A DNA stretch of 64,000 nucleotides, taken from the IMG/VR virus record IMGVR_UViG_3300027734_000034, one strand, 5' to 3'. The notes below the pieces were generated by a model, which was not told the DNA's origin, searched no databases, and saw only the letters and a program-made list of their open reading frames with translations. The position numbers and the translations under genes are program-made. Source of the DNA: a virus. Lineage: Duplodnaviria > Heunggongvirae > Uroviricota > Caudoviricetes. Every line of letters starts with the position of its first letter. Within the stretch, counting starts at the first letter, position 1. This document shows positions 1,602-64,000 of the stretch, piece by piece.

Positions 1602-3707
1602 TTATGCTTTCTTATTTTTGATAGATTTTTTGCTTTCGTATGCTATAGAAGCACCGGGTCTAGAAGAAGATGTATATCCTCTATCTTGTAATCTTGCTGG
1701 TTCATCACCAGTAGCTGAATATGGAGTGTTACTTAGATTGTTTGAATCATGTTGTCTCTGATATTCTTGGTTAGATGCATCCATTTCATCTTTACTAACT
1801 AATGGAGGTTGAACATCTGCACGATGTAATTTGAAATTATAAAACTTGATACCTTTTGATTTCATAAAATCTTTAACTGCTTCTGAAGCCTGTCCCGGGG
1901 AGTTATATTCTGTTCCAAGATTGATATCTTTTGTAATTGATTTACCATCTACTTGAAAAGTAATTTGAGCAACAATAGGTTGTATTTCATGTGCATGTGC
2001 TCCTGCCCCGCCCAATGCAGCAGCACCTGCTAGTGCAGCACCTGCTAAATTACTTTTCCAACCTTCTTCTACTTTTTTCTTAGCAGCATCCCATGCAGCA
2101 TCAGTCTTTACATTGTATTCTTTGCCACCAGCGCCAATGTCAGCAACTCTGCTACCAATATCTTTTTTAGTTTTTACAACAGCTTTATTGTGTTTGTTCA
2201 CACTCTTTTGCATTAATTTACCGAAGTCTGGATTGCGTTTAAGGGCCCGTTCATCTTCTGGACTTCTTGAACTTGCTGCTGCTGTTCTCAAATCACCTAA
2301 GTCAAATGCTTCCCTCATTCCTGCTACTTTGCTACCTTGAGTGTTAGCTGCGGTACCGGTACGGCTGGCTTTCATCTTATCTCCACCGCCACCAATGTGT
2401 CTACTACCATAATCGGTCTTGTCTGCCTTGCGTGGCTTTTTATATGGTAATTGTTGAACATTACCACCTTTACTTAAAAATGCTTGTAATGCAGAATCAT
2501 CTTCCGCTACACCTTCAGCACTATCAGTAGCTAATACATCTGCAACTGTGCCAATATGATCGTTTGCTACTGTGATATAACTGTATTCCCATGCATCTAA
2601 TTGATTACCTTGCTTCAACATCTGATGTATCTGCTTGCAATTCTTTGCAATATTACGCAACTCTCCCATAGCCATTTGTGGAATCTGTTCTCCACCATCA
2701 CTATCTTCGTATGCAAGTCCACCGGCGATAACACCAGCACCTTCCGTTACCCCTTGCTCTGCTTGATCCATGTACCATTTAAGAATTTTTAGTAATTCAG
2801 TAAGTGATTCTTGCCCTTCAGGATTACAGTAGTTCTTAGCCATTCTAGCTAAGTCGTACATTGTTCGTAAGTTGCTGGTGCTTACATCACCTTCATTCAT
2901 ACCTATCTTACGCATCACCGCTGGAGAAGCGATTTTTTTTATCGCTTCTTTTTTTCCTACTTGTGCTGCCCTATTGCTTATTTTTTGTGATACATCATCA
3001 TAATGTTTTGCCAATGGATTCATATAGCCGCCACCTAATGCATTATGCACCTCAGGCTTCATTGCTTGATTACTTTTGTTTTTAGCTAATTGTGCGGATC
3101 TTTGTAACAGATCAGAACTGAGTTCATTGATAGCATCACTATCAGGTTGCATCTCTTGACTGCTGATTAGATAATCCATCACATTAACCATCATACCTTT
3201 TGCTGCGCCAATCTTCTCTGATACCCACTCGGGGAATTCAGATTGAACGGATAATCTCTTATCTAAATCACTAGCAGCACGGGCGATAGTGTGTAGACTG
3301 TTCTTTAATGTGTGACCTTCGTGTTCACCATGGTCTAAGTCATGCTTAACAAATCCAGTTCTTCTTAGTCTACCTTGACCCGGGATAACGATTAAGTCTT
3401 GTTCTGCAATTTCCTCTTCGTTGACTTTTGTCATGCTTGCTTTGATTTCAGCTTTTGTTTTTCCATATTTCTTTTGAAATTCAGCAGTAGTTAACTCTGT
3501 TAAATCTATTGATAGTTCTTTAACTTTGCTTTCTGTAATGCTATTAGCGTAAGGCCCTTTCTTTTTAGCCTTCCCTTTCATTACTTGTTGTACAGGTTTC
3601 AGTCCCGGAACATTAACATTTTCACGGGTTTGAGTCATCATAGGCTTTGCTACGGTTGCGACTGACCCTGCTGTGGTTGAATTTTCTACTATTTGCTTAA
3701 ATCTCAT
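1602..3707 (-). CDS. 701-aa modular phage protein, probable virion/internal head protein
   Basis: N-terminus MRFKQIVE; short modules separated by hydrophobic-x-E motifs (ITE, VNE, IAE, INE, MNE, VTE, VAE, MRE, VEE); upstream TAAATA late promoter. Confidence 0.65.
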   Translation of the reverse strand: MRFKQIVENSTTAGSVATVAKPMMTQTRENVNVPGLKPVQQVMKGKAKKKGPYANSITESKVKELSIDLTELTTAEFQKKYGKTKAEIKASMTKVNEEEIAEQDLIVIPGQGRLRRTGFVKHDLDHGEHEGHTLKNSLHTIARAASDLDKRLSVQSEFPEWVSEKIGAAKGMMVNVMDYLISSQEMQPDSDAINELSSDLLQRSAQLAKNKSNQAMKPEVHNALGGGYMNPLAKHYDDVSQKISNRAAQVGKKEAIKKIASPAVMRKIGMNEGDVSTSNLRTMYDLARMAKNYCNPEGQESLTELLKILKWYMDQAEQGVTEGAGVIAGGLAYEDSDGGEQIPQMAMGELRNIAKNCKQIHQMLKQGNQLDAWEYSYITVANDHIGTVADVLATDSAEGVAEDDSALQAFLSKGGNVQQLPYKKPRKADKTDYGSRHIGGGGDKMKASRTGTAANTQGSKVAGMREAFDLGDLRTAAASSRSPEDERALKRNPDFGKLMQKSVNKHNKAVVKTKKDIGSRVADIGAGGKEYNVKTDAAWDAAKKKVEEGWKSNLAGAALAGAAALGGAGAHAHEIQPIVAQITFQVDGKSITKDINLGTEYNSPGQASEAVKDFMKSKGIKFYNFKLHRADVQPPLVSKDEMDASNQEYQRQHDSNNLSNTPYSATGDEPARLQDRGYTSSSRPGASIAYESKKSIKNKKA

Positions 3708-3730
3708 GACGGTTTCCCAAAGTTATAGAG

Positions 3731-3736
3731 TATTTA
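3731..3736 (-). promoter_or_regulatory. T4-type late promoter core TAAATA
   Basis: ttgaTAAATActc upstream of the 701-aa gene; the same hexamer precedes many late-type genes in the window. Confidence 0.6.
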
Positions 3737-3760
3737 TCAAAATACCATAATAAGGAAACT

Positions 3761-5167
3761 TTAGATTTTGCCGTTTGCTTTAGCTGTTGGGGGTATTCCA
3801 GCACGACTGGTGTTCCAGTAGAATGCTTTTGCGTTCTTTTTTATACTGTCAGGGTGTACATCTACAGTTAGTGCTGTCTTGAATCGCGGGTCATTCTTTT
3901 GTTTTTCGCTTGGAATATATCCACTTGCTTCACTTATTCCACCACGATATTGATTATCTTTAACGCCAGCATAAGGACTTACTGGTGGAGTTTTTTCTGC
4001 TGCAAATTGCATGGTGTTGTATTCTTCCGCCACACCTTTTACTTTTGGATCTAAATCTTTCAAGCTATTCACATCACCTTGCTTGCGCCACTTTGACCAC
4101 ATTTTTTGTCCAGCGGTAGTTTGTGTTTCAGAAGGCAATACATTGACACCTAACATGCGAATCAAAGCATACATATTTGCGGCTATACCTTGTCCTTGAT
4201 ATTTAGGATCGACTCTGGTCTTCATGCTTGTTACACCTTGCACTTCACCTGTATATAGATTTCGTGCTTTGGCAAATTGTGCATCTCCAATTGGATTGAG
4301 ATTTTTTTTATCATATGCTTTGATAGATAAGAAATCATTTTTCTTCCCTGCATTTGTAACATGATAAAGTATTCCGTTTATGTCTTGTTTGAAATCTAAT
4401 CCTGGTTTCCATAACTCATTGTTGAATTGTTCTTCTTCATCTATGTTCTGATACATAGTCTCAAACGATAACTTCTCACTATGTAACTTGTCTCTTAAAT
4501 CATATAATTTTGTAATATATCCTTGACTACGCAACATCTTATATGCTAAATTTTCAGGACCAAACTCACCACCTTTATCTAATCCTGCTTGTCTATATCG
4601 TTTGATCGTGTCTATTATATGTTTTACTTTACTATATTTTCTTGACTGTAGTGCTATCTCTATCAAACCTAATAACTTTTCATACTTGCTTTTAGTAGAA
4701 GTTTGGTCAAAATCACTTCTACGCTTAGTGGGTATTCTTATCCACTGATCATTCATTACACTGTATTCACCTAAACTTACAACAGGTTGTCTACTGTCTT
4801 GTACATATAATTCTACTGGAATTTTATGAATTGTTATATCATGTGTATCATTGTATATTGTTTTCTTTGCTGTAAATAACTCTTTATATACTTCATTGGT
4901 AGGTAAATTACCCATGTCTACTAATATATGTAAATCTAAATCACTGTGCTTTGTGTAGCTAAATGCAGCATTACTACCTGAGATTGTTATGTCTTTTACA
5001 TCTAAATCATGTACACCTAATTCTTCTAAAAAATCTGCTGCTATCAGCATAAGCTGGTCTCTAACATCTGGTCGCAATTTAGTTTCATTCCATAACTTAG
5101 GATTAAGTTTATCGTGGAATGTTACCGCATCACTTAGTTTAAAGCTATTAAGTTCTTTTTGATTCAT
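3761..5167 (-). CDS. Pol-beta-superfamily nucleotidyltransferase fused to a GNAT-like acetyltransferase domain
   Basis: N-terminal ISGSNAAFSYTKHSDLDLHILVD (GS...DxD); C-terminal half RVDPKYQGQGIAANMY...SETQTTAGQKMW (GNAT acetyl-CoA motif A, Q/RxxGxA). Confidence 0.7.
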   Translation of the reverse strand: MNQKELNSFKLSDAVTFHDKLNPKLWNETKLRPDVRDQLMLIAADFLEELGVHDLDVKDITISGSNAAFSYTKHSDLDLHILVDMGNLPTNEVYKELFTAKKTIYNDTHDITIHKIPVELYVQDSRQPVVSLGEYSVMNDQWIRIPTKRRSDFDQTSTKSKYEKLLGLIEIALQSRKYSKVKHIIDTIKRYRQAGLDKGGEFGPENLAYKMLRSQGYITKLYDLRDKLHSEKLSFETMYQNIDEEEQFNNELWKPGLDFKQDINGILYHVTNAGKKNDFLSIKAYDKKNLNPIGDAQFAKARNLYTGEVQGVTSMKTRVDPKYQGQGIAANMYALIRMLGVNVLPSETQTTAGQKMWSKWRKQGDVNSLKDLDPKVKGVAEEYNTMQFAAEKTPPVSPYAGVKDNQYRGGISEASGYIPSEKQKNDPRFKTALTVDVHPDSIKKNAKAFYWNTSRAGIPPTAKANGKI

Positions 5168-10254: not shown

Positions 10255-12493
10255 CTTCGTTCACCTTGGCTGTTAGTTTATGTGTTACTGCAAAATCAAT
10301 TGCACCTTCGTTCATCACTACATTGATTGTAGCAGATTTAATACGTTCAAACAAGACTTTTTTACTTAGAGGTACCCGAATCAATTCATCAATCTTGCGA
10401 CTTAATGGTCGTGCGCCCATCTTCTTATCGTATCCTTGCTCTGCCAAATACTCAACTACTGGTTCACTTAGATTCAATACAATATCATGCTTGTCAACCA
10501 AACTCTTTTTCAAGTCATCGGTAAACTTGATAACAATCTTCTTAATCGCAAGTGTATCCAATTTGTTAAACTTGCAAATCAAGTCAACACGATTTCTAAA
10601 CTCGGGCTTGAAGAATTCTTTCAATGCTTTGTCATCTTCACCGGTCTTCTCTTGTGTGCCGAAGCCGATGTTGTTGCGTTCGCTATCACTACTACCTAAA
10701 TTACTGGTCATGATAATGATACTGTTCTTACAGTTAACTTGCTTACCATTACTTCCAGTGATATGACCTTCGTCCAACATCTGCAAGAAGATGTTAAAGA
10801 TATCTGGATGTGCTTTCTCAACTTCATCAAACAACATGATCGAATGTGGGTTCTTGCTCAAGTCATTGATCAATCGTCCACCTGACACTTGACTATCACC
10901 AAACCCAACATAACCCGGGGGAGGTCCAATCAAACTACTTACGCTATGTTTTTCTGAGTATTCGCTCATGTCATACTTAAGCAACGGCATGTCTAAATTC
11001 TTGCTTAGTAGTTTAGCAAGTTCAGTCTTACCGGTACCAGTTGGTCCCAAGAACAAGAAACTACCTGTTGGCTTAGTGTCATTACCAATACCAGCAAAGT
11101 TAACATAGACTCGCTCAAGTACCTGTTGTACAGTTTCATCTTGTCCGTATAGTTTGTCTTTGATGTTTGATTCTAAATTTTGAATCAATTCAAAGTTATC
11201 ACCCTTCATTTTATCAGCAGGTACTCCAGTGAATCGTTCAACTTGGTCAAACACAAGTTCTTTAGTAATGATTGCACCTTTGTTTTCTGCTACACGCTGT
11301 TTAGCACAAGCAGCATCAAGCAAATCAATAGATTTATCTGGGTTCTTACGGTCATGAATATAGCGGTCAGCACTTTCAACTGCTGCTTTGATTGCCTCAT
11401 CAGTAATTTCAACATTGTGAAAATCATTTAGTCTAAGACTCAATCCATTAAGAATGCGAATTGTTGTATCGTGGTTAGGTTCATCAACTGAGATACGATA
11501 GAACCTACGCATCAACGCACGGTCCTTCTCAAAGCTATCATAGTATTCTTCCCATGTTGTACTAGCAATAACTTTAAGAGTACCTTTAGTAATTGCAGGT
11601 TTAATCATGTTACTGAAATCAACCGACCCATTGTTAGCACCACCTGCGCCTTGCATAGTATGTGCCTCGTCAATAAAAAGAATAGTCTTTTTCTTTGTGT
11701 TCAATGCCTCAAGTACTTGCTTAACCTTTTCCTCAAAGTCACCGCGATACTTACTACCTGCAAGTAGTGACCCAATCTCTAAACTGTATAGTTGATGGTC
11801 TTGCAAGAATTCAGGCACTTCTTTATTAATCATCATCTGTGCTAGACCTTCAGCAATTGCTGTTTTACCAACACCAGGATCACCGACCATCAATACATTA
11901 CTCTTAAACCGTTTAGCAAGTACGTTAATGATATCATCAAGTTCTTTGCTACGACCAATCAATGGCTCAAGTTTACCTTGTGCTGCTAGTTGTGTCAGGT
12001 TGATTGTGTATTCTTCTAGTATCTCATCAGCTTGGTTCTCTGTTAGATTTCCAGTCTCACCATGCTTATAATGTTTTTGCCAATGTGATACAAATTCGTT
12101 TTTGTTAATTCCGTATTTCAACAAGAAATAATGTGCATGGCTATTGCCTTCTGACGCAATGCTTAAGTATAAGTCAACAGTAGTAACCTGTCTACGACCA
12201 CTAAACAATACTTGTGTGACGCAACGATTCATAACACGCTCTAAACTATTTGTTTTGCGTGGAACTACATCGTCATCTTTGCTTACGATAGCATGTAAAC
12301 TATCTAAGTATGCATTAATCTCTTGATCCATTGTTTCAACGTCTGCACCAAAACTATGCAAACATTTTTTGAATGAATTATGATTTATCAGTCCAAGTAG
12401 TAAATGTTCCACGGTTACATATTGATGTTTTCTTTCTTTAGCATAATGAATCGCTTGTTCAATAATACTATCTATTTCGGGTGAATGGTTCAT
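10232..12493 (-). CDS. clpA: ATP-dependent Clp protease ATP-binding subunit ClpA
   Basis: Clp N-domain ([13 protein letters not shown]); Walker A GDPGVGKT and GPTGTGKT; [28 protein letters not shown]; IGFG ClpP-docking loop; no ClpB coiled-coil M domain. Confidence 0.92.
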
Positions 12494-13293
12494 TTTTGAT
12501 TCCTTTGTTGTTTGTATGCTGCAATAGTATTTACTAATTGTTCGTCTATGATATCAGGTATGAATGGCTTAAACAATATAATTTGGTCTCCGTAAACTGT
12601 TGAGTTAGGTATAGGCATCCCATGCCCTGCTAATTTTAATTGCATATATGGTTGTGTTTTTGGTTTAACTGTAACCTCTAATGTCTTTCCAGACAATGTT
12701 GTGAATTCAAAAGTTGTTCCAACAATTAAATCTAATACTGATATCGGGTGATTACATGATAAATCATTACCTTGTCTATCATATTTAAGATGGTTCTCCA
12801 CTCTGAAATCTACCATTAAACTAGCACCATCTATGACATTATCAATACGCATCTGATTGCCGTTGTTAATTCCTTTAGGTACTTGGATAGTAATAGCATG
12901 AGTGTTAGTGGGTGTTTGTAATTTTAATATTTGCTCTCCACCATAATATGCTTGTTCAAGTGTGATTCCTACTGTGGTTCTAAATGTTTGTGGTTGTTTG
13001 CGCTGTTGGCTAAACGGGTCAAACGGGTTGCCTCCGCCAAACATCTGACTAAAGATATGTTCAAACCCTGGGGGAACACCAGCTTGCTGATGAAATCCTT
13101 GGGGAGCAGGATTGTCGTATTGTTGTCGTTTGTTTGTATCGCTTAGTGTATCATAAGCGGCTTGAATATCTTGGAATTTAGCCTTGTCTCCGCCCTTGTC
13201 AGGATGATGCTGACTGGCTAGTTTCCTATATGCTTTTTTAATTTCGTCAGGTGATGCGTTTTTAGCTACACCTAATGTAGTATAATGATCCAT
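12490..13293 (-). CDS. dnaJ: DnaJ/CbpA-type co-chaperone (J domain + G/F region + C-terminal domain, no Zn finger)
   Basis: MDHYTTLGV...[18 protein letters not shown] (HPD motif). Confidence 0.9.
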
Positions 13294-13299
13294 TCAATT

Positions 13300-13328
13300 A
13301 TTATAGCACAACATTATGCTAATGTCAA
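13300..13328 (-). promoter_or_regulatory. sigma70 promoter giving a probably leaderless dnaJ-clpA mRNA
   Basis: TTGACA-17 nt-TATAAT, then 6 nt (aattga) and the ATG of dnaJ. Confidence 0.85.
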
Positions 13329-13333
13329 CACCT

Positions 13334-13933
13334 TTAGTTAGCGCCGGCAACCTTTTCTTTAGTACGACCGTATGCTGCAATACCCAAAACAGCACCCATA
13401 GCGATATGATATAGTCCTGCACCTTGTAGTGTCAATGGTTGCCATTGACTAGTTACTGCACCTTTACTGAGTGCTTGTAGTAGACTCCAAAGAATTGGGA
13501 ACACAATGAAATCAGTAAGGCATGTAGCCATATATAGCCATCCCATTGCGGGACGCCATTTTGAATTTATCCAATGTTCACTTTCTTTATCATTTGCAAC
13601 TAATACATCAGCACCGCTTGCTGCATTAGTGGGTGCTGCACCAGTTAGTACTGGTTGTTGTCCACTTGATTGATTGATGTTTTGAGTACTTCCAAATCCT
13701 GTGTTTGGTTGTTGGTTGAAGCTAGGGGAGTTAAAACTGTTTTGATTGAATCCAGACGCTCCCGTTCCAAACGTTGAATTTCCACCAAAGCCTGTTGTAG
13801 TATTTGTTGTTCCATAAGTACTTCCTTGTGGAAATTGCGGAATTGTTGGATCCGCTGCTAACAAATCATGTTGATCATCACTCTTTGCTACTGCTAAATC
13901 TGTTGACGCTTTTTGTGCTAGAATAGTTGCCAT
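13334..13933 (-). CDS. Holin-like membrane protein (GTA 3TM holin-like) with a low-complexity N-terminus
   Basis: C-terminal KWRPAMGWLY...TM...MGAVLGIAAYGRTKEK resembles the 3TM holin signature (WRP...G...RTxEK). Confidence 0.55.
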   Translation of the reverse strand: MATILAQKASTDLAVAKSDDQHDLLAADPTIPQFPQGSTYGTTNTTTGFGGNSTFGTGASGFNQNSFNSPSFNQQPNTGFGSTQNINQSSGQQPVLTGAAPTNAASGADVLVANDKESEHWINSKWRPAMGWLYMATCLTDFIVFPILWSLLQALSKGAVTSQWQPLTLQGAGLYHIAMGAVLGIAAYGRTKEKVAGAN

Positions 13934-15117: not shown

Positions 15118-15276
15118 TCTTTTATTGATTATTAGCACTAATAAGAAATACTTGACCGTAGCCTTATATTTAGTCTACAGAATTGTGTTAAAAGTATGTT
15201 ACTTTACATCATCAAAATTCATTTAAATAATAATGAGTATTATGAGTACTCACGCTCTTATGAAGGAGAATTTACA

Positions 15277-16059
15277 TTGAGCAAACGGAAAACCAGTGCT
15301 TTACGCACTACCCAGCAAGATCCTCGCTTTACAAGCAAAAAAACAAATCAAACTTTTTACATGAAAGAATCAAAAACAATAGACTTTTCACAGGCTCAGA
15401 AATCTGTACGTATCAATAAAAGACCCGTACAGTTAGTTCCCAAATCACTGAATCAAGAAAATTACATTATCGCACTATTAGATGAGAACACCGATATCGT
15501 TGTTGTCACTGGTCCTGCGGGCACAGGTAAAACTTATTTGGCGATGCAAGCAGCTATTAAAGCAATGCGTGATGGTGAATGTGATAGAATCATATTATCC
15601 AGACCGGCAGTAGGGGTAGATGATGAAAAACACGGGTTCTTGCCCGGTGATATCAATCAAAAGATGGAACCGTGGACAAGACCATTAATGGATGTATTAC
15701 GTGAGTACTACACACAGTCAGAAATTACTCATATGTTAGAAGAACAAATCATAGAGATTGCCCCATTGGCATTCTGTCGTGGTCGTAACTTCAAACATAG
15801 TTGGGTAGTGTTAGATGAAGCGCAAAATGCAACACCTGGTCAACTCAAAATGATTATGACTAGAATCGGCGTTGGCAGTAAGATTGTAATTACTGGCGAT
15901 ATTGAACAAGCCGATAGAAAATCAGCCGACAATGGGCTACTAGACTTACAAAATCGATTGAGGAAGGGGGTGATACCAGGGTTGCAATTATGTACCTTTG
16001 ACATTAAAGATGTTCAGAGGCACCGCATCATTGAACATGTACTAAACTTGTACAGTTAA
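15277..16059 (+). CDS. phoH: PhoH-like ATPase
   Basis: GPAGTGKT, SRPAV, GFLPGDINQKMEPW, PLAFCRGR, DEAQN, TGDIEQ; probable TTG start after SD aaggag. Confidence 0.92.
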   Translation: MSKRKTSALRTTQQDPRFTSKKTNQTFYMKESKTIDFSQAQKSVRINKRPVQLVPKSLNQENYIIALLDENTDIVVVTGPAGTGKTYLAMQAAIKAMRDGECDRIILSRPAVGVDDEKHGFLPGDINQKMEPWTRPLMDVLREYYTQSEITHMLEEQIIEIAPLAFCRGRNFKHSWVVLDEAQNATPGQLKMIMTRIGVGSKIVITGDIEQADRKSADNGLLDLQNRLRKGVIPGLQLCTFDIKDVQRHRIIEHVLNLYS

Positions 16060-59014: not shown

Positions 59015-59269
59015 TTATTTCATTAGTAGGCCCATCAGAATTAGCTTTTCCAAGTGGTCTATCGCTTTATTAATGTTGTCAACTTGAGTTTGGGTATAAT
59101 CTGTACTGCGAATTCTACGACCATTTACTTCAAGTTTGCTTAGTTCGGTCACCATAACTTGAATATTATCATACATCTTTTTCAAGTCTGGATTGTAACC
59201 CATGCGGTGTAGATCAGTCTTTAGTCTATCTGATACTTCTTGCCAATCTAGTGCTGTTTGGATTTTCAT
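59015..59269 (-). CDS. Hypothetical early protein, probably leaderless
   Basis: Start MKIQTALDW, 6 nt after TATAAT. Confidence 0.65.
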   Translation of the reverse strand: MKIQTALDWQEVSDRLKTDLHRMGYNPDLKKMYDNIQVMVTELSKLEVNGRRIRSTDYTQTQVDNINKAIDHLEKLILMGLLMK

Positions 59270-59275
59270 ATTGTT

Positions 59276-59304
59276 ATTATAATACCTTTTGGTATTTATG
59301 TCAA
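59276..59304 (-). promoter_or_regulatory. sigma70 promoter, leaderless
   Basis: TTGACA-17 nt-TATAAT-aacaat-ATG. Confidence 0.85.
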
Positions 59305-59331
59305 GGATGTTGTACAAACATAAATAAGATT

Positions 59332-59976
59332 GTGAAACCCACAATCGCATTATTCTTGTACGACCCGAAATGCTCCGTCCAATCAGGAAACGGGATGATG
59401 AAGGCTTTAAGTGAGTATTATAACTTCAAAATCTTTAGTAAAAATAAGTTAGAATACGATTTCTTTGACGGGGTAGATATGATTGCTGTTCCGGGAGGGA
59501 TCGGGGATAGTGATACATTCAAACAACTTTTCAAAAACAACGGAAAACGAGTAAAAGATTTCATCCATGGTGGCGGTAGATACTTAGGTATCTGTATGGG
59601 TGCATATTGGGCAGGTAGTCATTACTTGAATGTACTAGATGATGTTGATGCGGTACAGTATATCAAACAACCTGGTACTGATACACGTAGACCACATGCT
59701 AAAAACTTAGCAATAACATGGAAAGACGAACCCATGAACATGTTCTTCTATGATGGGTGTTCGCTAGTTGGCAATAGACACAAATTCAGAACGGTCGCTA
59801 CATACGCAAATGGTGATGCGATGGCTATCTATCAAAAACGCATAGGACTGATTGGTTGTCATCCTGAAAGTGAACAGTTTTGGTATGATAGCTACAGCTA
59901 CATGAAGGGCAAGTGGCACGGCGGCGAGCAGCACGAATTGTTGTTAGATTTCACTAACGATTTAATGAATAGGTAA
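59332..59976 (+). CDS. Class I glutamine amidotransferase-like (BPL_N-type) protein
   Basis: IAVPGG, GGRYLGICMGAY (nucleophile elbow Cys), GCHPES; probable GTG start 5 nt after TAAATA (59321-59326). Confidence 0.75.
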   Translation: MKPTIALFLYDPKCSVQSGNGMMKALSEYYNFKIFSKNKLEYDFFDGVDMIAVPGGIGDSDTFKQLFKNNGKRVKDFIHGGGRYLGICMGAYWAGSHYLNVLDDVDAVQYIKQPGTDTRRPHAKNLAITWKDEPMNMFFYDGCSLVGNRHKFRTVATYANGDAMAIYQKRIGLIGCHPESEQFWYDSYSYMKGKWHGGEQHELLLDFTNDLMNR

Positions 59977-59980
59977 TACC

Positions 59981-60277
59981 CTATTCTAGATCCTTGTCTC
60001 TGATCTTAAATCCTTCACCATTGTTCAATACACACGCCATAGTCTTGTCATATTGAACTACAGTCCAAGTGAGGGTCTCAGTATTGATCATCACAACGGT
60101 TTGAGTATCAGAGTATTTGCTATCTCCAACCCAGATTATTTTCTCTTTGGCCATCTTGGTTAGTGCCTCAAGAACAAATTTAGTTTTTCCGCAAGTTAAT
60201 TTTCTGTCATACTCTGCTAGTTGGGCAAATGAAATAGTGGTTGTTAGGCATAACAATGCCAATATTAGGTGACGCAT
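59981..60277 (-). CDS. Hypothetical exported protein
   Basis: Signal peptide; architecture like 34949-35275. Confidence 0.6.
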   Translation of the reverse strand: MRHLILALLCLTTTISFAQLAEYDRKLTCGKTKFVLEALTKMAKEKIIWVGDSKYSDTQTVVMINTETLTWTVVQYDKTMACVLNNGEGFKIRDKDLE

Positions 60278-60356: not shown

Positions 60357-60968
60357 ATGAAAGAAATACTAGAGACATTAAGAGTGCAACGCTGGGACGA
60401 TCATCGCTATTATCATCACAGCAGGATAAATCAATTTTTGCATTTAATTAGTGCATTATCATTCATAGTAGCATATGCTTATCTATTCATTGATCCCGTA
60501 ATTAGTGCTTACATCGCGTGGTTTATCTCAATGACTACAAGACAAGCAGGACATTTCTTCTTTGAACCCAAAGATTACGACACATACAATCAGGCCACAC
60601 AAGATCATAAAGAGGCTATCAAGATTGGATACAATCTCAAACGCAAACGAGTATTGATCGCTTGCTGGTTGGCTGTGCCGTTGCTGGCATACTTTGATGC
60701 GGCATTGTTTAACTTTGTGATGCCAGACGCTGCACCAGACACACTAATAGATAGGATTGGTTGGGGTTGGTTATGGTTAGGATTAGCAGCAGTTGTGTTT
60801 AGAATGATACAACTTACTGCTATTCAAAGCCGCAAAGTAGCACTAGTATGGTGCTTAAAGATAATGACAGATCCATTCCATGATGCTGTCATCTATCGCA
60901 AGAGTCCATTATATCTGATGCGTGGGCAGTTGATTGATCCTGACTTGCGTCAAGATTATGAAGATTAA
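60357..60968 (+). CDS. Mpo1/DUF962-like membrane protein
   Basis: RWDDHRYYHHSRINQFLHLIS...RQAGHFFFEPK; His-rich membrane-bound metalloenzyme pattern. Confidence 0.6.
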   Translation: MKEILETLRVQRWDDHRYYHHSRINQFLHLISALSFIVAYAYLFIDPVISAYIAWFISMTTRQAGHFFFEPKDYDTYNQATQDHKEAIKIGYNLKRKRVLIACWLAVPLLAYFDAALFNFVMPDAAPDTLIDRIGWGWLWLGLAAVVFRMIQLTAIQSRKVALVWCLKIMTDPFHDAVIYRKSPLYLMRGQLIDPDLRQDYED

Positions 60969-61963
60969 AGCGGAGTAAGATTGTCGCGGAATATCTTCCA
61001 GGCTCTCTCCCAACTCCAACGCTGGCTACCTTCTAATACTCTATCTCTATCTAATTGTAGGCAACCAGTTATAGCATCAGCTAGGTTCTCATTCACAAAT
61101 CCAGTGACACCTTGCTCAACAACATCTAATGGTCCTAGCACAGGGTATGCTGCTACAGGAGTGCCGCAGGCCATGGCTTCAATCATCACAATGCCAAATG
61201 TTTCCCACCGTGAAGGAAACACAAACACATCAGCATCAGCATAGCATTGTGCTAGAGCGAAGCCGGTCTTGAATCCTTTGAACTCCACATCAGGATATAG
61301 TTTTTCCAGTCTAGCACGATCCGGCCCGTCACCTACTAATACTTTGCGAGCACCAGGATAATCCAAACTGCAAAACGCATCCAGATTCTTTTCTATGCTG
61401 AGTCTGCACACACACAACAGCACAGGACCGGTGCCTCTGCTGCCGCGATAACCGGGATTAAATATGCTTCGGTCAACGCCGCGGGTCCATGAGTTGATCT
61501 CGCCCCAGAAGCCATGTTCTTTCAGTTCCTTCACCATACTATCTGTAGTAGTCAATACACGACCACTATGTTTGTGAAACCATCTCACATATTTCCAAGT
61601 TATAGATTGTGGTATCCTTAGATACTTATGTAAGGCTTCAGGATACTTTGTATGATAAGCAGTATTATACCTACGATAGTGCCGGTCAAGATAAAATCTA
61701 GCGTAGAGACCAAGAGGACCCTCTGTGGCGATGTGTATATAATCCGGAGCCACCGCCCTAATCTTCTCCCCAATCTTCCAGGGAATCGAAATTTTAACTT
61801 CACTGTAGCCTGGGCAATCAAAAAATAGGAACTCCATGGGAGTAAGGAAAACAACACGATAGTCGTCCAGAACCGCACACGCCTCAATATTCTTATATGT
61901 AGTGACAACGCCATTTATTTGCTCTGGTAAGTTATCCGTTATTATCAGTATCGTCTTGATCAT
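60965..61963 (-). CDS. agt: GT4 glycosyltransferase, Agt-like diacylglycerol glycosyltransferase
   Basis: ITDNLPEQINGVVTT, HIATEGPLG, TAYHTKYPE, WTRGVD, FPSRWETFGIVMIEAMACGTPV; overlaps the plcP stop. Confidence 0.75.
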   Translation of the reverse strand: MIKTILIITDNLPEQINGVVTTYKNIEACAVLDDYRVVFLTPMEFLFFDCPGYSEVKISIPWKIGEKIRAVAPDYIHIATEGPLGLYARFYLDRHYRRYNTAYHTKYPEALHKYLRIPQSITWKYVRWFHKHSGRVLTTTDSMVKELKEHGFWGEINSWTRGVDRSIFNPGYRGSRGTGPVLLCVCRLSIEKNLDAFCSLDYPGARKVLVGDGPDRARLEKLYPDVEFKGFKTGFALAQCYADADVFVFPSRWETFGIVMIEAMACGTPVAAYPVLGPLDVVEQGVTGFVNENLADAITGCLQLDRDRVLEGSQRWSWERAWKIFRDNLTPL

Positions 61964-62705
61964 TTTCTCTAGTCCATGTAACTATTTCCCACTTACCATC
62001 ATGATGCTCTACCAATGCTGTGCATGACTCTACCCAGTCACCGTCGTTCATGTAAGTGATTCCATCTATATCTTTGATTTCAGCATGGTGAATATGTCCA
62101 CATATAACCCCATCAAAGCCTCGCTTCTTACAGTACTTAGCGAGGTTGTGTTCAAAGTGAAAAATAAAATCAACAGCTTTTTTCACACGCTGTTTCAAAT
62201 ACTGACTAAGACTCCAATAACCAAATCCCATCTTATGTCTTATCCAATTGAATCTGCTATTCCATGCTAGGATAGTATCGTATGCATAATCTCCTAAGAA
62301 ACTTATCCAAGGTGCTAGTCTAGTTATACCATCAAACAAATCTCCATGCACTACAAGATAATGCTTGCCATCTGCACCTATATGTTCTATCTGATTGTGT
62401 ATCTCAACGAGTCCAAAACTGAATCCATATGGAATCATCGGGCGTAGAAATTCATCGTGATTACCAGCAACATATATAACTCTTGTTCCACGTTTAGCGT
62501 GACCAAGAACACGACGGACTACATTAGTGTGACTCTGCTTCCAACGCCATTTATTTTGTTGGATACGCCATGCATCAATTATATCCCCTACTAGATATAG
62601 TGTATCGCATGAGTTATGCTTTAGAAAGTTGTTGAGTTTGTCAGCTTGACAATCTTTGGTTCCTAAATGCACATCAGAGATAAAAATTGATCTATATGTT
62701 TTCAT
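61932..62705 (-). CDS. plcP: PlcP-like Mn-dependent phospholipase C (LpxH-like metallophosphoesterase family)
   Basis: FISDVHLG, LVGDIID, AGNHDEFLR (NH rather than the NR of LpxH), VHGDLFD, LGDYAYD, GYWSLS, CGHIHH, NDGDWVESCTALVEH. Confidence 0.8.
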   Translation of the reverse strand: MKTYRSIFISDVHLGTKDCQADKLNNFLKHNSCDTLYLVGDIIDAWRIQQNKWRWKQSHTNVVRRVLGHAKRGTRVIYVAGNHDEFLRPMIPYGFSFGLVEIHNQIEHIGADGKHYLVVHGDLFDGITRLAPWISFLGDYAYDTILAWNSRFNWIRHKMGFGYWSLSQYLKQRVKKAVDFIFHFEHNLAKYCKKRGFDGVICGHIHHAEIKDIDGITYMNDGDWVESCTALVEHHDGKWEIVTWTRENDQDDTDNNG

Positions 62706-62721
62706 TATTATTATTCTAATA

Positions 62722-62742
62722 AAAAAGAGCCTTTCGGCTCTT
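62722..62742 (-). terminator. Terminator between pstS and plcP
   Basis: aagagcc-GAAA-ggctctt followed by a T run. Confidence 0.8.
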
Positions 62743-62787
62743 AGTGCTGGTTACGAGTTCCAGCCTCCTCTCTATCTTGAGGTCGGT

Positions 62788-63783
62788 TTAAAATAATCCT
62801 AGTTGTTTCCAATCAGAACGAATCTTAGCTTTGACTGCTGCCGGTAATGCAACATAGTCTAACTCATCTGCGGCTTTGTCGCCATTATTGAAAGCCCAAT
62901 CAAAGAATGTTAGAGCAGTTTTAGATGCAGCAACATCACCTGGCTTTACATAAACAAGAATGAATGTAGCACCACTGATAGGCCATGCTTCTTTGCCTGC
63001 TTGATTAGTCAATATCTGATAGTAACTCTTGTTCCAGTCAGCGTTAGCAGCGGCTGCTTTGAATGCATCTTCTGTAGGTGCTACCCAATTGCCTGCTGCA
63101 TTCTGCACATTGACCCAGTTCATCTTGGCTTGTTTTACATAAGCATATTCAACATAGCCCAATGCCCCCGGAAGTTGGCGAACCATAGCAGAAACGCCTT
63201 CGTTACCCTTACCACCTGCTCCTGTTTTCCAACTAACAGCAGTGCCTTCACCGATTGTATCTTTGAACTCTTTGCTGACTTTGCTCAAGTAGTTGGTCCA
63301 GATGAATGTTGTGCCACTTCCATCTGCACGGCGAACCACTGTGATAGCTTGATCGGGCAATGCTAGTGACGGGTTCAATGATTTGATAGCAGCATCATCC
63401 CAACGGGTGATCTTGCCCAAGAAGATATCAGCCATGACTGCACCTGTCAAGCGTAGTTGTCCGGGCTCAATTCCTTTGAGGTTGATTACCGGAACAACTC
63501 CACCAATTGCTGTAGGAAACTGAAACAAGCCTGATGCTTGAAGTTTGTCATCGGTGAGTGGCATGTCACTTGCACCGAACGTGACGGTCTTTGCTTCAAT
63601 CTGCTTGATGCCTGCGCCTGAACCAACTGATTGATAGTTGATCTTGATGTTGGTAGACTTGTTATATTCACTCGCCCACTTTGCATATAACGGAGCCGGG
63701 AATGTTGCCCCGGCTCCTGTAATCTCTTGTGCTGATGCAGCGAATGCTATCACTGCCAATAATGTTGTAAACAGTTTTTTCAT
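62788..63783 (-). CDS. pstS: Phosphate ABC transporter periplasmic binding protein PstS
   Basis: Signal peptide, GAGATFPAPLYAKW, YQSVGSGAGI, FGASDMPL, RADGSGTT, GKGNEGV, WPISGATF; SD aaggag. Confidence 0.95.
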   Translation of the reverse strand: MKKLFTTLLAVIAFAASAQEITGAGATFPAPLYAKWASEYNKSTNIKINYQSVGSGAGIKQIEAKTVTFGASDMPLTDDKLQASGLFQFPTAIGGVVPVINLKGIEPGQLRLTGAVMADIFLGKITRWDDAAIKSLNPSLALPDQAITVVRRADGSGTTFIWTNYLSKVSKEFKDTIGEGTAVSWKTGAGGKGNEGVSAMVRQLPGALGYVEYAYVKQAKMNWVNVQNAAGNWVAPTEDAFKAAAANADWNKSYYQILTNQAGKEAWPISGATFILVYVKPGDVAASKTALTFFDWAFNNGDKAADELDYVALPAAVKAKIRSDWKQLGLF

Positions 63784-63814
63784 GTAATCTCCTTGTGTGT
63801 TACACAAATATTTA

Positions 63815-63843
63815 GTGACATAATTGTGACAGTAATATTACAT
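63815..63843 (-). promoter_or_regulatory. Pho box (three half-sites) directly followed by a TAAATA late promoter (63809-63814)
   Basis: Minus strand ATGTAAT-atta-CTGTCAC-aatt-ATGTCAC-TAAATA: 7-4-7-4-7 direct repeats resembling the PhoB consensus CTGTCAT. Confidence 0.8.
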
Positions 63844-63851
63844 CCATAAGA

Positions 63852-63872
63852 AAAGGGCAACTAGTGCCCTTT
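63852..63872 (-). terminator. Terminator after the porin-like gene
   Basis: aaagggca-5 nt-tgcccttt, T-rich tail on the minus strand. Confidence 0.75.
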
Positions 63873-63890
63873 GTTCTAATTTGAGTTAGA

Positions 63891-64000
63891 TTAGAAATTG
63901 AATTCTACGCCTACACCGTATTGATTAATATCAGTAGCAGCATCTAGGTAACTCCAACGAGCATTGAATGTCAATGCTTTGTTCATCGCATAGCTTACAC
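63891..64000 (-). CDS. C-terminal fragment of a probable outer-membrane beta-barrel (porin-like) protein
   Basis: Manual translation ...VSYAMNKALTFNARWSYLDAATDINQYGVGVEFNF*: alternating beta strands and a terminal Phe (BAM beta-signal). Confidence 0.65.
   Translation of the reverse strand, partial: VSYAMNKALTFNARWSYLDAATDINQYGVGVEFNF

Follow-up and report, generated by a model that had tools for sequence, protein, structure and literature searches.

A giant freshwater phage carries pstS followed by predicted PlcP-type and Agt-like lipid-renovation genes

We examined the end of a 64,000-nt window (the whole stretch of DNA analysed) from a giant freshwater phage, in which a preliminary description had noticed a porin-like gene, a triple Pho box, pstS, a PlcP-type metallophosphoesterase and an overlapping Agt-type GT4 glycosyltransferase, with phoH elsewhere in the window. 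The named elements were all present on the minus strand, and phoH was found at 15196..16059 (+) (233 bits). The porin gene is cut by the window end, so that only its last 110 nt (64000..63891) lie within the window; the whole 299-aa gene is L004:14698-15597 (L004 being the sequence that holds it). This short protein of a jumbo-phage lineage has a signal peptide and a C-terminal Phe, its nearest Atlas clusters are Porin_4/OmpC-like and mostly viral, and its homologues at 63-92% identity carry PF13609 (Porin_4) and are named 'predicted porin', although the protein itself gave no Pfam or NCBIfam hit at E<=0.01. A hairpin with a stem of 8 pairs (63852..63872, -) follows the porin stop codon and is probably the porin terminator; the terminator scan flagged it on the + strand, but on the - strand it is followed by TTTTCTT. 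As the porin has this terminator and no Pho box, its membership of the module rests on adjacency alone.

Downstream of the hairpin lies a Pho-box-like promoter (63809..63843, -). The 'triple Pho box' of the preliminary description is in fact three 7-bp half-sites in 11-bp phase, ATGTAAT (63843-63837), CTGTCAC (63832-63826) and ATGTCAC (63821-63815), that is one and a half boxes, followed by TAAATA (63814-63809) as the likely -10 element. The next gene is pstS (62788..63783, -), which encodes a periplasmic phosphate-binding protein of 331 aa with a signal peptide. Its ATG at 63783 is preceded by an AAGGAG ribosome-binding site (63794-63789), and the alternative TTG at 63807 is probably too far upstream. 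The protein scored 427 bits with the PstS equivalog model NF008171 (cut-off 339) and 390 bits with TIGR00975 (cut-off 205), and it also matched PF12849 and the PHROG phosphate transporter subunit family. A 331-aa relative is 92% identical in L010/L011, two of the related sequences.

Between pstS and the phosphoesterase gene we found a structured spacer of three hairpins (62706..62787, -), the last of which is terminator-like (62742..62725, then a T-run), a feature that the preliminary description had not noted. The spacer folds with -25.9 kcal/mol (z = -4.6) and matches no Rfam family, but the same element occurs in 11 distinct contexts in related phages, where its first stem covaries. The phosphoesterase gene (61932..62705, -; 257 aa, no signal peptide) has no Pho box of its own in this window. 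The GT4 gene (60965..61963, -; 332 aa) overlaps the end of the phosphoesterase gene by 32 nt.

We first asked whether this region could be host DNA joined to the phage contig by misassembly, or a recently captured passenger with no role in the phage, as its G+C content (0.416-0.418) is slightly higher than in most of the window (about 0.38). The locus lies at 141-145 kb of a 231-kb viral contig with phage-type genes on both sides, and thus is not a chimeric end. Moreover, at least 595 IMG/VR contigs carry the plcP gene at 84-93% identity, with varied flanks, whereas no genome among about 185,000 species representatives exceeded 59% identity. The phage PlcP and GT4 also each form one clade. We therefore consider this explanation highly unlikely.

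Next, we determined whether the phosphoesterase is a PlcP-type enzyme or LpxH. Public records name its homologues UDP-2,3-diacylglucosamine hydrolase or pyrophosphatase, which would suggest a lipid A enzyme paired with an LPS glycosyltransferase that together rewrite lipid A or LPS. The protein matched Pfam Metallophos but scored only 44 and 35 bits with the two LpxH models (cut-offs 134 and 190). Five bacterial genomes each hold a true LpxH (220-333 bits) plus a second paralogue scoring 41-57 bits, and it is this paralogue that is the homologue of the phage protein. In 29 of 31 genomes of a Pseudomonas genus there was exactly one match, at 54-58% identity; for comparison, characterised PlcPs share only 46-47% identity with each other (PMC8528852). 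The phage protein has the PlcP-clade motifs GNHDEF (GNHD at residues 81-84), CGHIHHA and NDGDWVE, where LpxH has GNRDFL and HGHTHRP. In the tree, LpxH was split off at 100% support and the phage proteins formed one clade (98%) nested among bacterial PlcP homologues, although this placement is anchored by orthology inferred at genus level plus synteny, as no experimentally characterised PlcP or Agt sequence could be placed in our trees. The predicted structure (pLDDT 88) has an LpxH-like core with a helical cap at residues 126-194, which fits a lipid substrate. LpxH (PDB 5B49, 5K8K, 6PH9), which shares the calcineurin-like fold with a helical lipid-binding cap inserted in the core and the binuclear metal site, is the nearest solved fold, but only at TM about 0.55 and 17-22% identity, and its gene context is different. 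In addition, the partner here is a GT4 and not the GT19 LpxB. An LpxH-type function is thus very unlikely.

We then asked whether the GT4 is related to the glycosyltransferase of bacterial plcP operons. The protein matched Glycos_transf_1 and Glyco_transf_4, and 57 of 80 bacterial homologues of the phosphoesterase are directly followed by a GT4 that is 38-46% identical to it. This is the 'type 2' plcP-agt arrangement (PMC4796936). The plcP-adjacent gene was the best genome-wide match of the phage GT4 in Azospirillum and Limnohabitans (E 1e-77 and 1e-67), and the reciprocal best match held in these two genomes. H103, WTRGVD and the R/E/K/N of the first UDP motif are kept. In contrast, the second motif is FPSRWETFG and not FPSxTDTFG, placing Glu where the Agt group has its catalytic Asp. 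As D256E removed over 90% of activity in the SAR11 enzyme (PMC8231724), the product of the phage GT4 may differ. Of the 88 related loci fetched, 84 showed a GT4 or GT2 gene directly downstream of plcP and 4 showed none; in about two thirds of related phages a 239-aa GT2 replaces the GT4. This replacement by a non-homologous enzyme at one position argues that the two genes are functionally coupled.

To assess the control site, we searched for the paired pattern TGT[CA]A[CT]-N5-TGT[CA]A[CT]. It occurred only twice in the 231-kb genome, both hits overlapping at this promoter, against 1.65 hits per shuffled genome. In related phages, the same box-N11-TAAATA layout preceded plcP in 26 of 64 and pstS in 6 of 7 distinct upstream regions, against a background of 12 hits in 1.69 Mb, so that the Pho-type repeat is enriched before plcP and pstS and otherwise almost absent. 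In L014, another of the related sequences, the same promoter feeds plcP directly through the hairpin element, with no pstS. The strict repeat was rare before bacterial plcP genes (1 of 80), although degenerate phased half-sites are evident in the loci of the Pseudomonas genus. However, TAAATA is also the T4-like late-promoter core of this phage group, and control could therefore be by infection stage rather than, or as well as, by phosphate.

Each check that could be run favoured the interpretation in the preliminary description that the phage mines the host membrane for phosphate while replacing phospholipids with glycolipids. We consider it likely that this is a phage-borne copy of the bacterial phosphate-starvation lipid-renovation pathway joined to a phage pstS, with enzyme activities and phosphate-dependent expression inferred from sequence. 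In the mechanism we propose, host PhoB in a phosphate-starved infected cell would bind the half-sites at 63843-63815 and activate the promoter, which would yield abundant pstS mRNA and, by read-through of the hairpin/terminator spacer, less plcP-GT4 mRNA. PstS would be exported and raise phosphate capture. PlcP, which has no signal peptide, would work at the cytoplasmic face of the inner membrane, cutting the phospho-head group off phospholipids and leaving diacylglycerol, and the translationally coupled GT4 would glycosylate the diacylglycerol from a UDP-sugar. The membrane would stay intact while its phosphorus is freed for the roughly 350-kb phage genome.

Could the pair instead serve the phage's own protection, with pstS as a separate phosphate gene? 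PlcP and the glycosyltransferase might alter surface or receptor properties (superinfection exclusion) or stabilise the envelope until lysis. The terminator between pstS and plcP allows separate control, pstS is often not adjacent to plcP in relatives, TAAATA before plcP resembles the late promoter of the phage, the GT4 departs from the Agt catalytic signature, and lipid renovation changes membrane proteins and possibly phage receptors in P. aeruginosa (PMC9804370). On the other hand, the Pho-type repeat precedes plcP itself in relatives, and PlcP-type enzymes act on inner-membrane phospholipids from the cytoplasm, not on surface receptors. This reading seems unlikely, but it is compatible with phosphorus recovery rather than exclusive of it. 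Even more doubtful is a supply of diacylglycerol or glycolipid for a phage-made structure, such as the membrane vesicles or compartments formed by some jumbo phages, or for controlled weakening of the membrane before lysis. The phage is very large, plcP is much more conserved (84-93%) than its neighbours, and a late-type promoter core lies before plcP in relatives. Nevertheless, nothing here points to a lipid-containing phage structure, the association with Pho-type sites and pstS would not be explained, and the bacterial homologues sit in phosphate-starvation operons.

Finally, we compared the locus with known systems. The bacterial 'type 2' plcP-agt operons (P. aeruginosa PA3219/PA3218, SAR11 HTCC7211, A. 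tumefaciens Agt, S. meliloti and Phaeobacter MED193 PlcP; PMC4796936, PMC8528852, PMC8231724) have the same order of a metallophosphoesterase followed by a GT4, the same PlcP-clade motifs, phased Pho-type half-sites upstream and a cytoplasmic enzyme without a signal peptide; identity to bacterial PlcP homologues is 50-59%. The phage genes differ in that they overlap, whereas the bacterial ones are separated by 50-100 nt, in that pstS and a structured spacer lie between the promoter and plcP, in the FPSxWETFG motif of the GT4, in the replacement of the GT4 by a GT2 in many relatives, and in a -10 element that coincides with the phage late-promoter core. The phosphate-stress auxiliary genes of cyanophages and pelagiphages (pstS, phoH, phoA behind Pho boxes) likewise include a phage pstS with a signal peptide behind a host-type Pho box, with phoH elsewhere in the genome. 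Those systems raise phosphate uptake or release, while this one would add an internal source, the host's own phospholipids. In our literature searches we found no paper describing such a module in phages, where these genes are annotated as LpxH. Pelagibacter phage Mosig has pstS next to a plcP homologue (48% identity) that is annotated as a lipid A hydrolase, with no glycosyltransferase annotated beside it.

Convergent to the GT4 gene lies a gene (60357..60968, +) for a 203-aa helical membrane protein (DUF962/Mpo1-like; conserved QRWDDHRYYHHS). The Mpo1-like hit was weak (E 8.5e-4, below the cut-off) and the structural model (pLDDT 82) gave no informative fold match, but its nearest Atlas clusters are DUF962/transmembrane. 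Interestingly, this gene travels with the GT4 form of the module: it is next to the GT4 in 10 related phage loci and in none of the GT2-type loci, and homologues lie within 5 kb of plcP in 4 bacterial loci.

We first asked where the locus lies in the phage genome. The window is the reverse strand of bases 141487-205486 of a 230,993-base IMG/VR viral contig that is estimated to be 66% complete, so that the locus is about 141 kb from one contig end and 86 kb from the other. On one side lie a phage ligase, ATPases, a ClpA-like protease, structural proteins and phoH (15196-16059), and on the other lie radical-SAM genes, a UDP-glucose dehydrogenase with a phage family match, a tmRNA and a porin. 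A host-derived chimeric end, which the preliminary description had named as an outcome that would refute it, is therefore excluded, and the rival reading of misassembly is largely excluded. The tmRNA gene (genome 139973-140343, just beyond window base 64000; positions 13974-14344 in L004, our handle for sequence of this genome that reaches past the window) is permuted, in two pieces and of the betaproteobacterial type (Rfam beta_tmRNA, 155.6 bits; tmRNA_permuted, 148.4 bits), and ARAGORN gives the tag peptide ANDELYSLAA. This hints at a betaproteobacterial host. Close to it, a 24-codon ORF (L004:14452-14526) reads MKWTTPQASDMRFGFEITMYIANR and lies a few kb from three radical-SAM/B12-binding genes (L004:586-1830, 3017-4939 and 11326-13533).

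Reading the minus strand from 64000 downwards, we found the last 110 nt of a 299-aa porin-like gene (the stop ends at 63891), a hairpin (63872-63852), three 7-bp half-sites in 11-bp phase, ATGTAAT, CTGTCAC and ATGTCAC (63843-63815), the hexamer TAAATA (63814-63809), the ribosome-binding site AAGGAG (63794-63789) and pstS (63783-62788). These are followed by an 82-nt spacer that folds into three hairpins (fold z-score -4.6), the last of which is a terminator-like stem with a T-run (62742-62725), and then by a 257-aa metallophosphoesterase (62705-61932) and a 332-aa GT4 glycosyltransferase that overlaps it by 32 nt (61963-60965). The observation made in the preliminary description, a co-oriented pstS, metallophosphoesterase and overlapping GT4 downstream of Pho-type repeats with a porin-like gene upstream and phoH elsewhere, is thus confirmed. 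PstS passes two equivalog models (NF008171, 427 bits against a cut-off of 339; TIGR00975, 390 bits against a cut-off of 205), and its N-terminus from the ATG at 63783 is a typical signal peptide. The porin itself has no family profile hit at E<=0.01, and its identity rests on a signal peptide, a terminal Phe, PF13609 (Porin_4) hits in homologues at 63-92% identity and nearest Atlas clusters that are Porin_4 and mostly viral. As the porin gene has its own probable hairpin terminator and no Pho-type site, its link to the other genes is adjacency only. A megablast search of the phage collection for near-identical sequences found nothing.

Next, we asked whether the metallophosphoesterase is of the PlcP type or is an LpxH, its closest named paralogue, as public phage and metagenome records list these genes. 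It matches PF00149 at E 4.7e-12, and D11, H13, D41, N82, H83, H120, H204 and H206 are invariant across 32 diverse homologues. On the two LpxH equivalog models it scores only 44 and 35 bits, whereas the cut-offs are 134 and 190. Five bacterial genomes each hold a true LpxH (220-333 bits) and a second gene scoring 41-57 bits, and that second gene is the homologue of the phage protein. In a Pseudomonas genus, 29 of 31 genomes have exactly one match, at 54-58% identity, and its promoter carries phased TGTCA half-sites. This matches the published description of PA3219, whose identity to the Phaeobacter and Sinorhizobium PlcPs is only 46-47% (PMC8528852), although this anchor to characterised PlcPs is an indirect one. 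A maximum-likelihood tree of 103 sequences splits LpxH off with 100% support on a very long branch and places 12 jumbo-phage proteins in one clade (98%), nested among gammaproteobacterial-type homologues (99%), with the Pelagibacter phage Mosig protein, one unclassified MAG contig and one Arcobacteraceae MAG as the nearest neighbours. The motifs separate the two families cleanly: all PlcP-clade members, the phage ones included, have GNHDE(F/M), CGHIH(H/K)A and NDGDWVE (GNHDEF and CGHIHHA in the protein studied here), while LpxH has GNRDFL and HGHTHRP. The GNHD motif that the preliminary description had taken as PlcP-type is therefore a real discriminator. The AlphaFold model (pLDDT 88) has the metallophosphoesterase core with a helical cap at residues 126-194, and the nearest solved structures are LpxH, at TM 0.53-0.58 and 17-22% identity. 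The predicted architecture is of the same lipid-enzyme type, but it is a different family. An LpxH/LPS role is largely excluded, and the LpxH annotation of these genes appears to be an error.

We then examined the GT4. It is 332 aa long, compared to 334 aa for the SAR11 enzyme GTcp, and matches PF00534 (1.3e-24), PF13439 (1.2e-11) and PF13692 (1.5e-23). In 57 of 80 bacterial loci the PlcP homologue is followed directly by a GT4 that is 38-46% identical to the phage GT4, which is the 'type 2' plcP-agt arrangement of Sebastián et al. (PMC4796936). In Azospirillum and Limnohabitans the best genome-wide match of the phage GT4 is that adjacent gene, at E 1e-77 and 1e-67, while the next GT4 scores 1e-9 and 1e-34. 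To compare it with the characterised enzyme, we looked for the features of GTcp (PMC8231724). The catalytic His (His104 in GTcp) is kept as H103 in YHTKYPE, and CRLSIEKN keeps the R, E, K and N of the first UDP-sugar motif, GRVAxEKN. WTRGVD (T160, R161), probably the diacylglycerol-binding Thr-Arg (Thr162 and Arg163 in GTcp), is also kept, and Trp residues are present at 316, 318 and 322 (Trp320 in GTcp), but these correspondences are inferred from motif context and not from an alignment to GTcp itself. In contrast, the second UDP-sugar motif differs. In 52 of 59 bacterial plcP-adjacent GT4s it is FPSxTDTFG, with the essential Asp256, whereas in 30 of 31 phage GT4s it is FPSxWETFG (FPSRWETFG in the window). 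Glu is the usual catalytic residue of other GT4 enzymes, so the enzyme is probably active. In GTcp, however, D256E removed over 90% of activity, and the phage enzyme may therefore differ in donor, acceptor or rate. Seven bacterial partners also have Glu, among them Limnohabitans, Curvibacter and Roseateles. The phage GT4s form one clade with 100% support.

We also asked how the module is organised in related phages. The plcP gene occurs on at least 595 viral contigs, and metagenome assemblies hold thousands more, on contigs of 260-520 kb. No bacterial species representative exceeds 59% identity. This is an old phage-lineage gene and not a recent capture. The closest 'bacterial' PlcP (58% identity) lies on contig JBCCBQ010000005.1 (348 kb, binned as a Pseudomonadota MAG), which has no adjacent GT4 and groups with the phage Mosig protein; its size and placement suggest that it may be a mis-binned jumbo phage. 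In 84 of the 88 loci examined a glycosyltransferase gene was detected directly downstream of plcP, and the other 4 show no glycosyltransferase hit. About 30 loci have the GT4, while about 55, or about two thirds of the related phages, have an unrelated 239-aa GT2 in its place (Glycos_transf_2 at 67 bits; Glyco_transf_21 at 27 bits, above its cut-off), as in the related locus L005 (6907-7626). Replacement by a non-homologous enzyme at a fixed position is good evidence that what is selected is PlcP plus a glycosyltransferase. We found no GT2, OmpR-type regulator or alkaline phosphatase in the 231 kb of this contig, although at about 66% completeness this does not show absence from the genome.

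To test whether the half-sites upstream of pstS could be a Pho box, we first searched with the strict consensus CTGTCATNNNNCTGTCAT, which gave no hit with up to 2 mismatches and, with up to 3 mismatches, 22 hits against 30 expected. The site has three mismatches, so the strict consensus alone does not support a Pho box. We therefore used the phased half-site pattern and comparison with relatives instead. The paired pattern TGT[CA]A[CT]-N5-TGT[CA]A[CT] occurs only twice in the 231-kb genome, and both hits overlap here. Across related loci it is present in 26 of 64 distinct plcP upstream regions and in 6 of 7 pstS upstream regions, against a background of 12 hits in 1.69 Mb. Although the loci are related, so that a P-value computed on them overstates their independence, the half-site sequences themselves differ between loci. 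Nearly every remaining hit precedes a third, unidentified gene (hits at L016:4455, L021:7629, L027:5107 and L037:7629 in four related loci), which encodes an Ala/Val/Glu-rich protein of roughly 150-220 aa starting MRLEDLAARL, with no family match and no homologue in this genome. The strict paired pattern was found before only 1 of 80 bacterial plcP genes, but inspection of the Pseudomonas-genus loci showed phased, degenerate half-sites. The layout in the phages is constant: an 18-bp box, about 11 nt (11 nt after the first pair in the window), TAAATA and then the start codon. This is the geometry of PhoB-dependent promoters. However, TAAATA is also the core of this phage group's late promoter, so control by infection stage cannot be separated from control by phosphate. 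No OmpR-type regulator was found in the contig. The reader of the box is presumably host PhoB.

In the window plcP has no box of its own and follows the terminator-like hairpin at 62742-62725. Interestingly, in the closest relative (L014) pstS is missing, and the same promoter is followed directly by the same hairpin element and then plcP. This argues that the promoter serves plcP-GT4 by read-through, with the hairpins setting the ratio of pstS to the downstream genes, a step that we infer. The hairpin element (62746-62787, minus strand) is a conserved RNA-like element that follows the stop codons of pstS, porin and other genes, and it is also present in the related loci L010, L014, L029, L034, L044, L046, L047, L058 and L070. 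It has a first hairpin whose stem covaries (CCTC/GAGG, CCAC/GTGG, CCGC/GCGG, GGTAC/GTACA with one unpaired end, GGATAC/GTATC) around the loop AAGATAGA, then an invariant hairpin, CTGG-AACTCGTAA-CCAG, and often a terminator. It occurs once in this genome and matches no Rfam family.

The proposal of the preliminary description, that this phage can mine the host membrane for phosphate while replacing phospholipids with glycolipids, is thus supported as far as sequence analysis can go. The most likely mechanism, in which the enzyme activities and phosphate-dependent expression are inferred, is phosphate-starvation-induced capture of phosphate (PstS) together with conversion of host phospholipids to diacylglycerol (PlcP) and then to glycolipid (GT4), which frees lipid phosphorus for phage DNA. 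Envelope remodelling for other ends and lipid supply for a phage structure are rival readings of the same genes. Phosphorus often limits phage production, and a genome of about 350 kb is costly in phosphorus. While the known phage answers are better uptake (pstS), phoH and phosphatases, a phage-encoded PlcP plus glycosyltransferase would add a different source, the host's own membrane phospholipids. The bacterial pathway and phage pstS/phoH are known, but our literature searches found no description of a phage plcP-agt module. The Asp-to-Glu and Thr-to-Trp change in the phage GT4 motif, the comparison with L014 that ties the Pho promoter to plcP, and the covarying hairpin element are added here. 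A further possibility, which we put forward only tentatively, is that a large, abundant lineage of freshwater jumbo phages uses the host's own phosphate-starvation regulator to switch on a phage-adapted lipid-renovation pathway that converts host phospholipid into phage DNA phosphorus. In this view the phages have diversified the second step, with a GT4 carrying a Trp-Glu catalytic motif or an unrelated GT2, and would therefore make glycolipids that differ from those of their hosts, and the combination of a Pho box with the late-promoter core would make expression need both starvation and the right stage of infection.

Finally, we looked at the genes that surround the module. pstS, the porin, a BPL_N/GATase-like gene and small secreted proteins come and go around the plcP-glycosyltransferase core in related phages. 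A 203-aa helical membrane protein (60357-60968, plus strand; DUF962/Mpo1-like) with the His-rich motif QRWDDHRYYHHS converges on the GT4, and their 3' ends overlap by 4 nt. It accompanies only the GT4 form of the module (10 loci), and its homologues lie within 5 kb of plcP in four unrelated bacteria. A fold search with this protein gave only its own family and chance hits. Next to the module also lie a BPL_N/class-I glutamine-amidotransferase-like protein (59251-59976, plus strand) and a 98-aa secreted protein (59981-60277, minus strand), and homologues of both recur beside plcP in many related phages.
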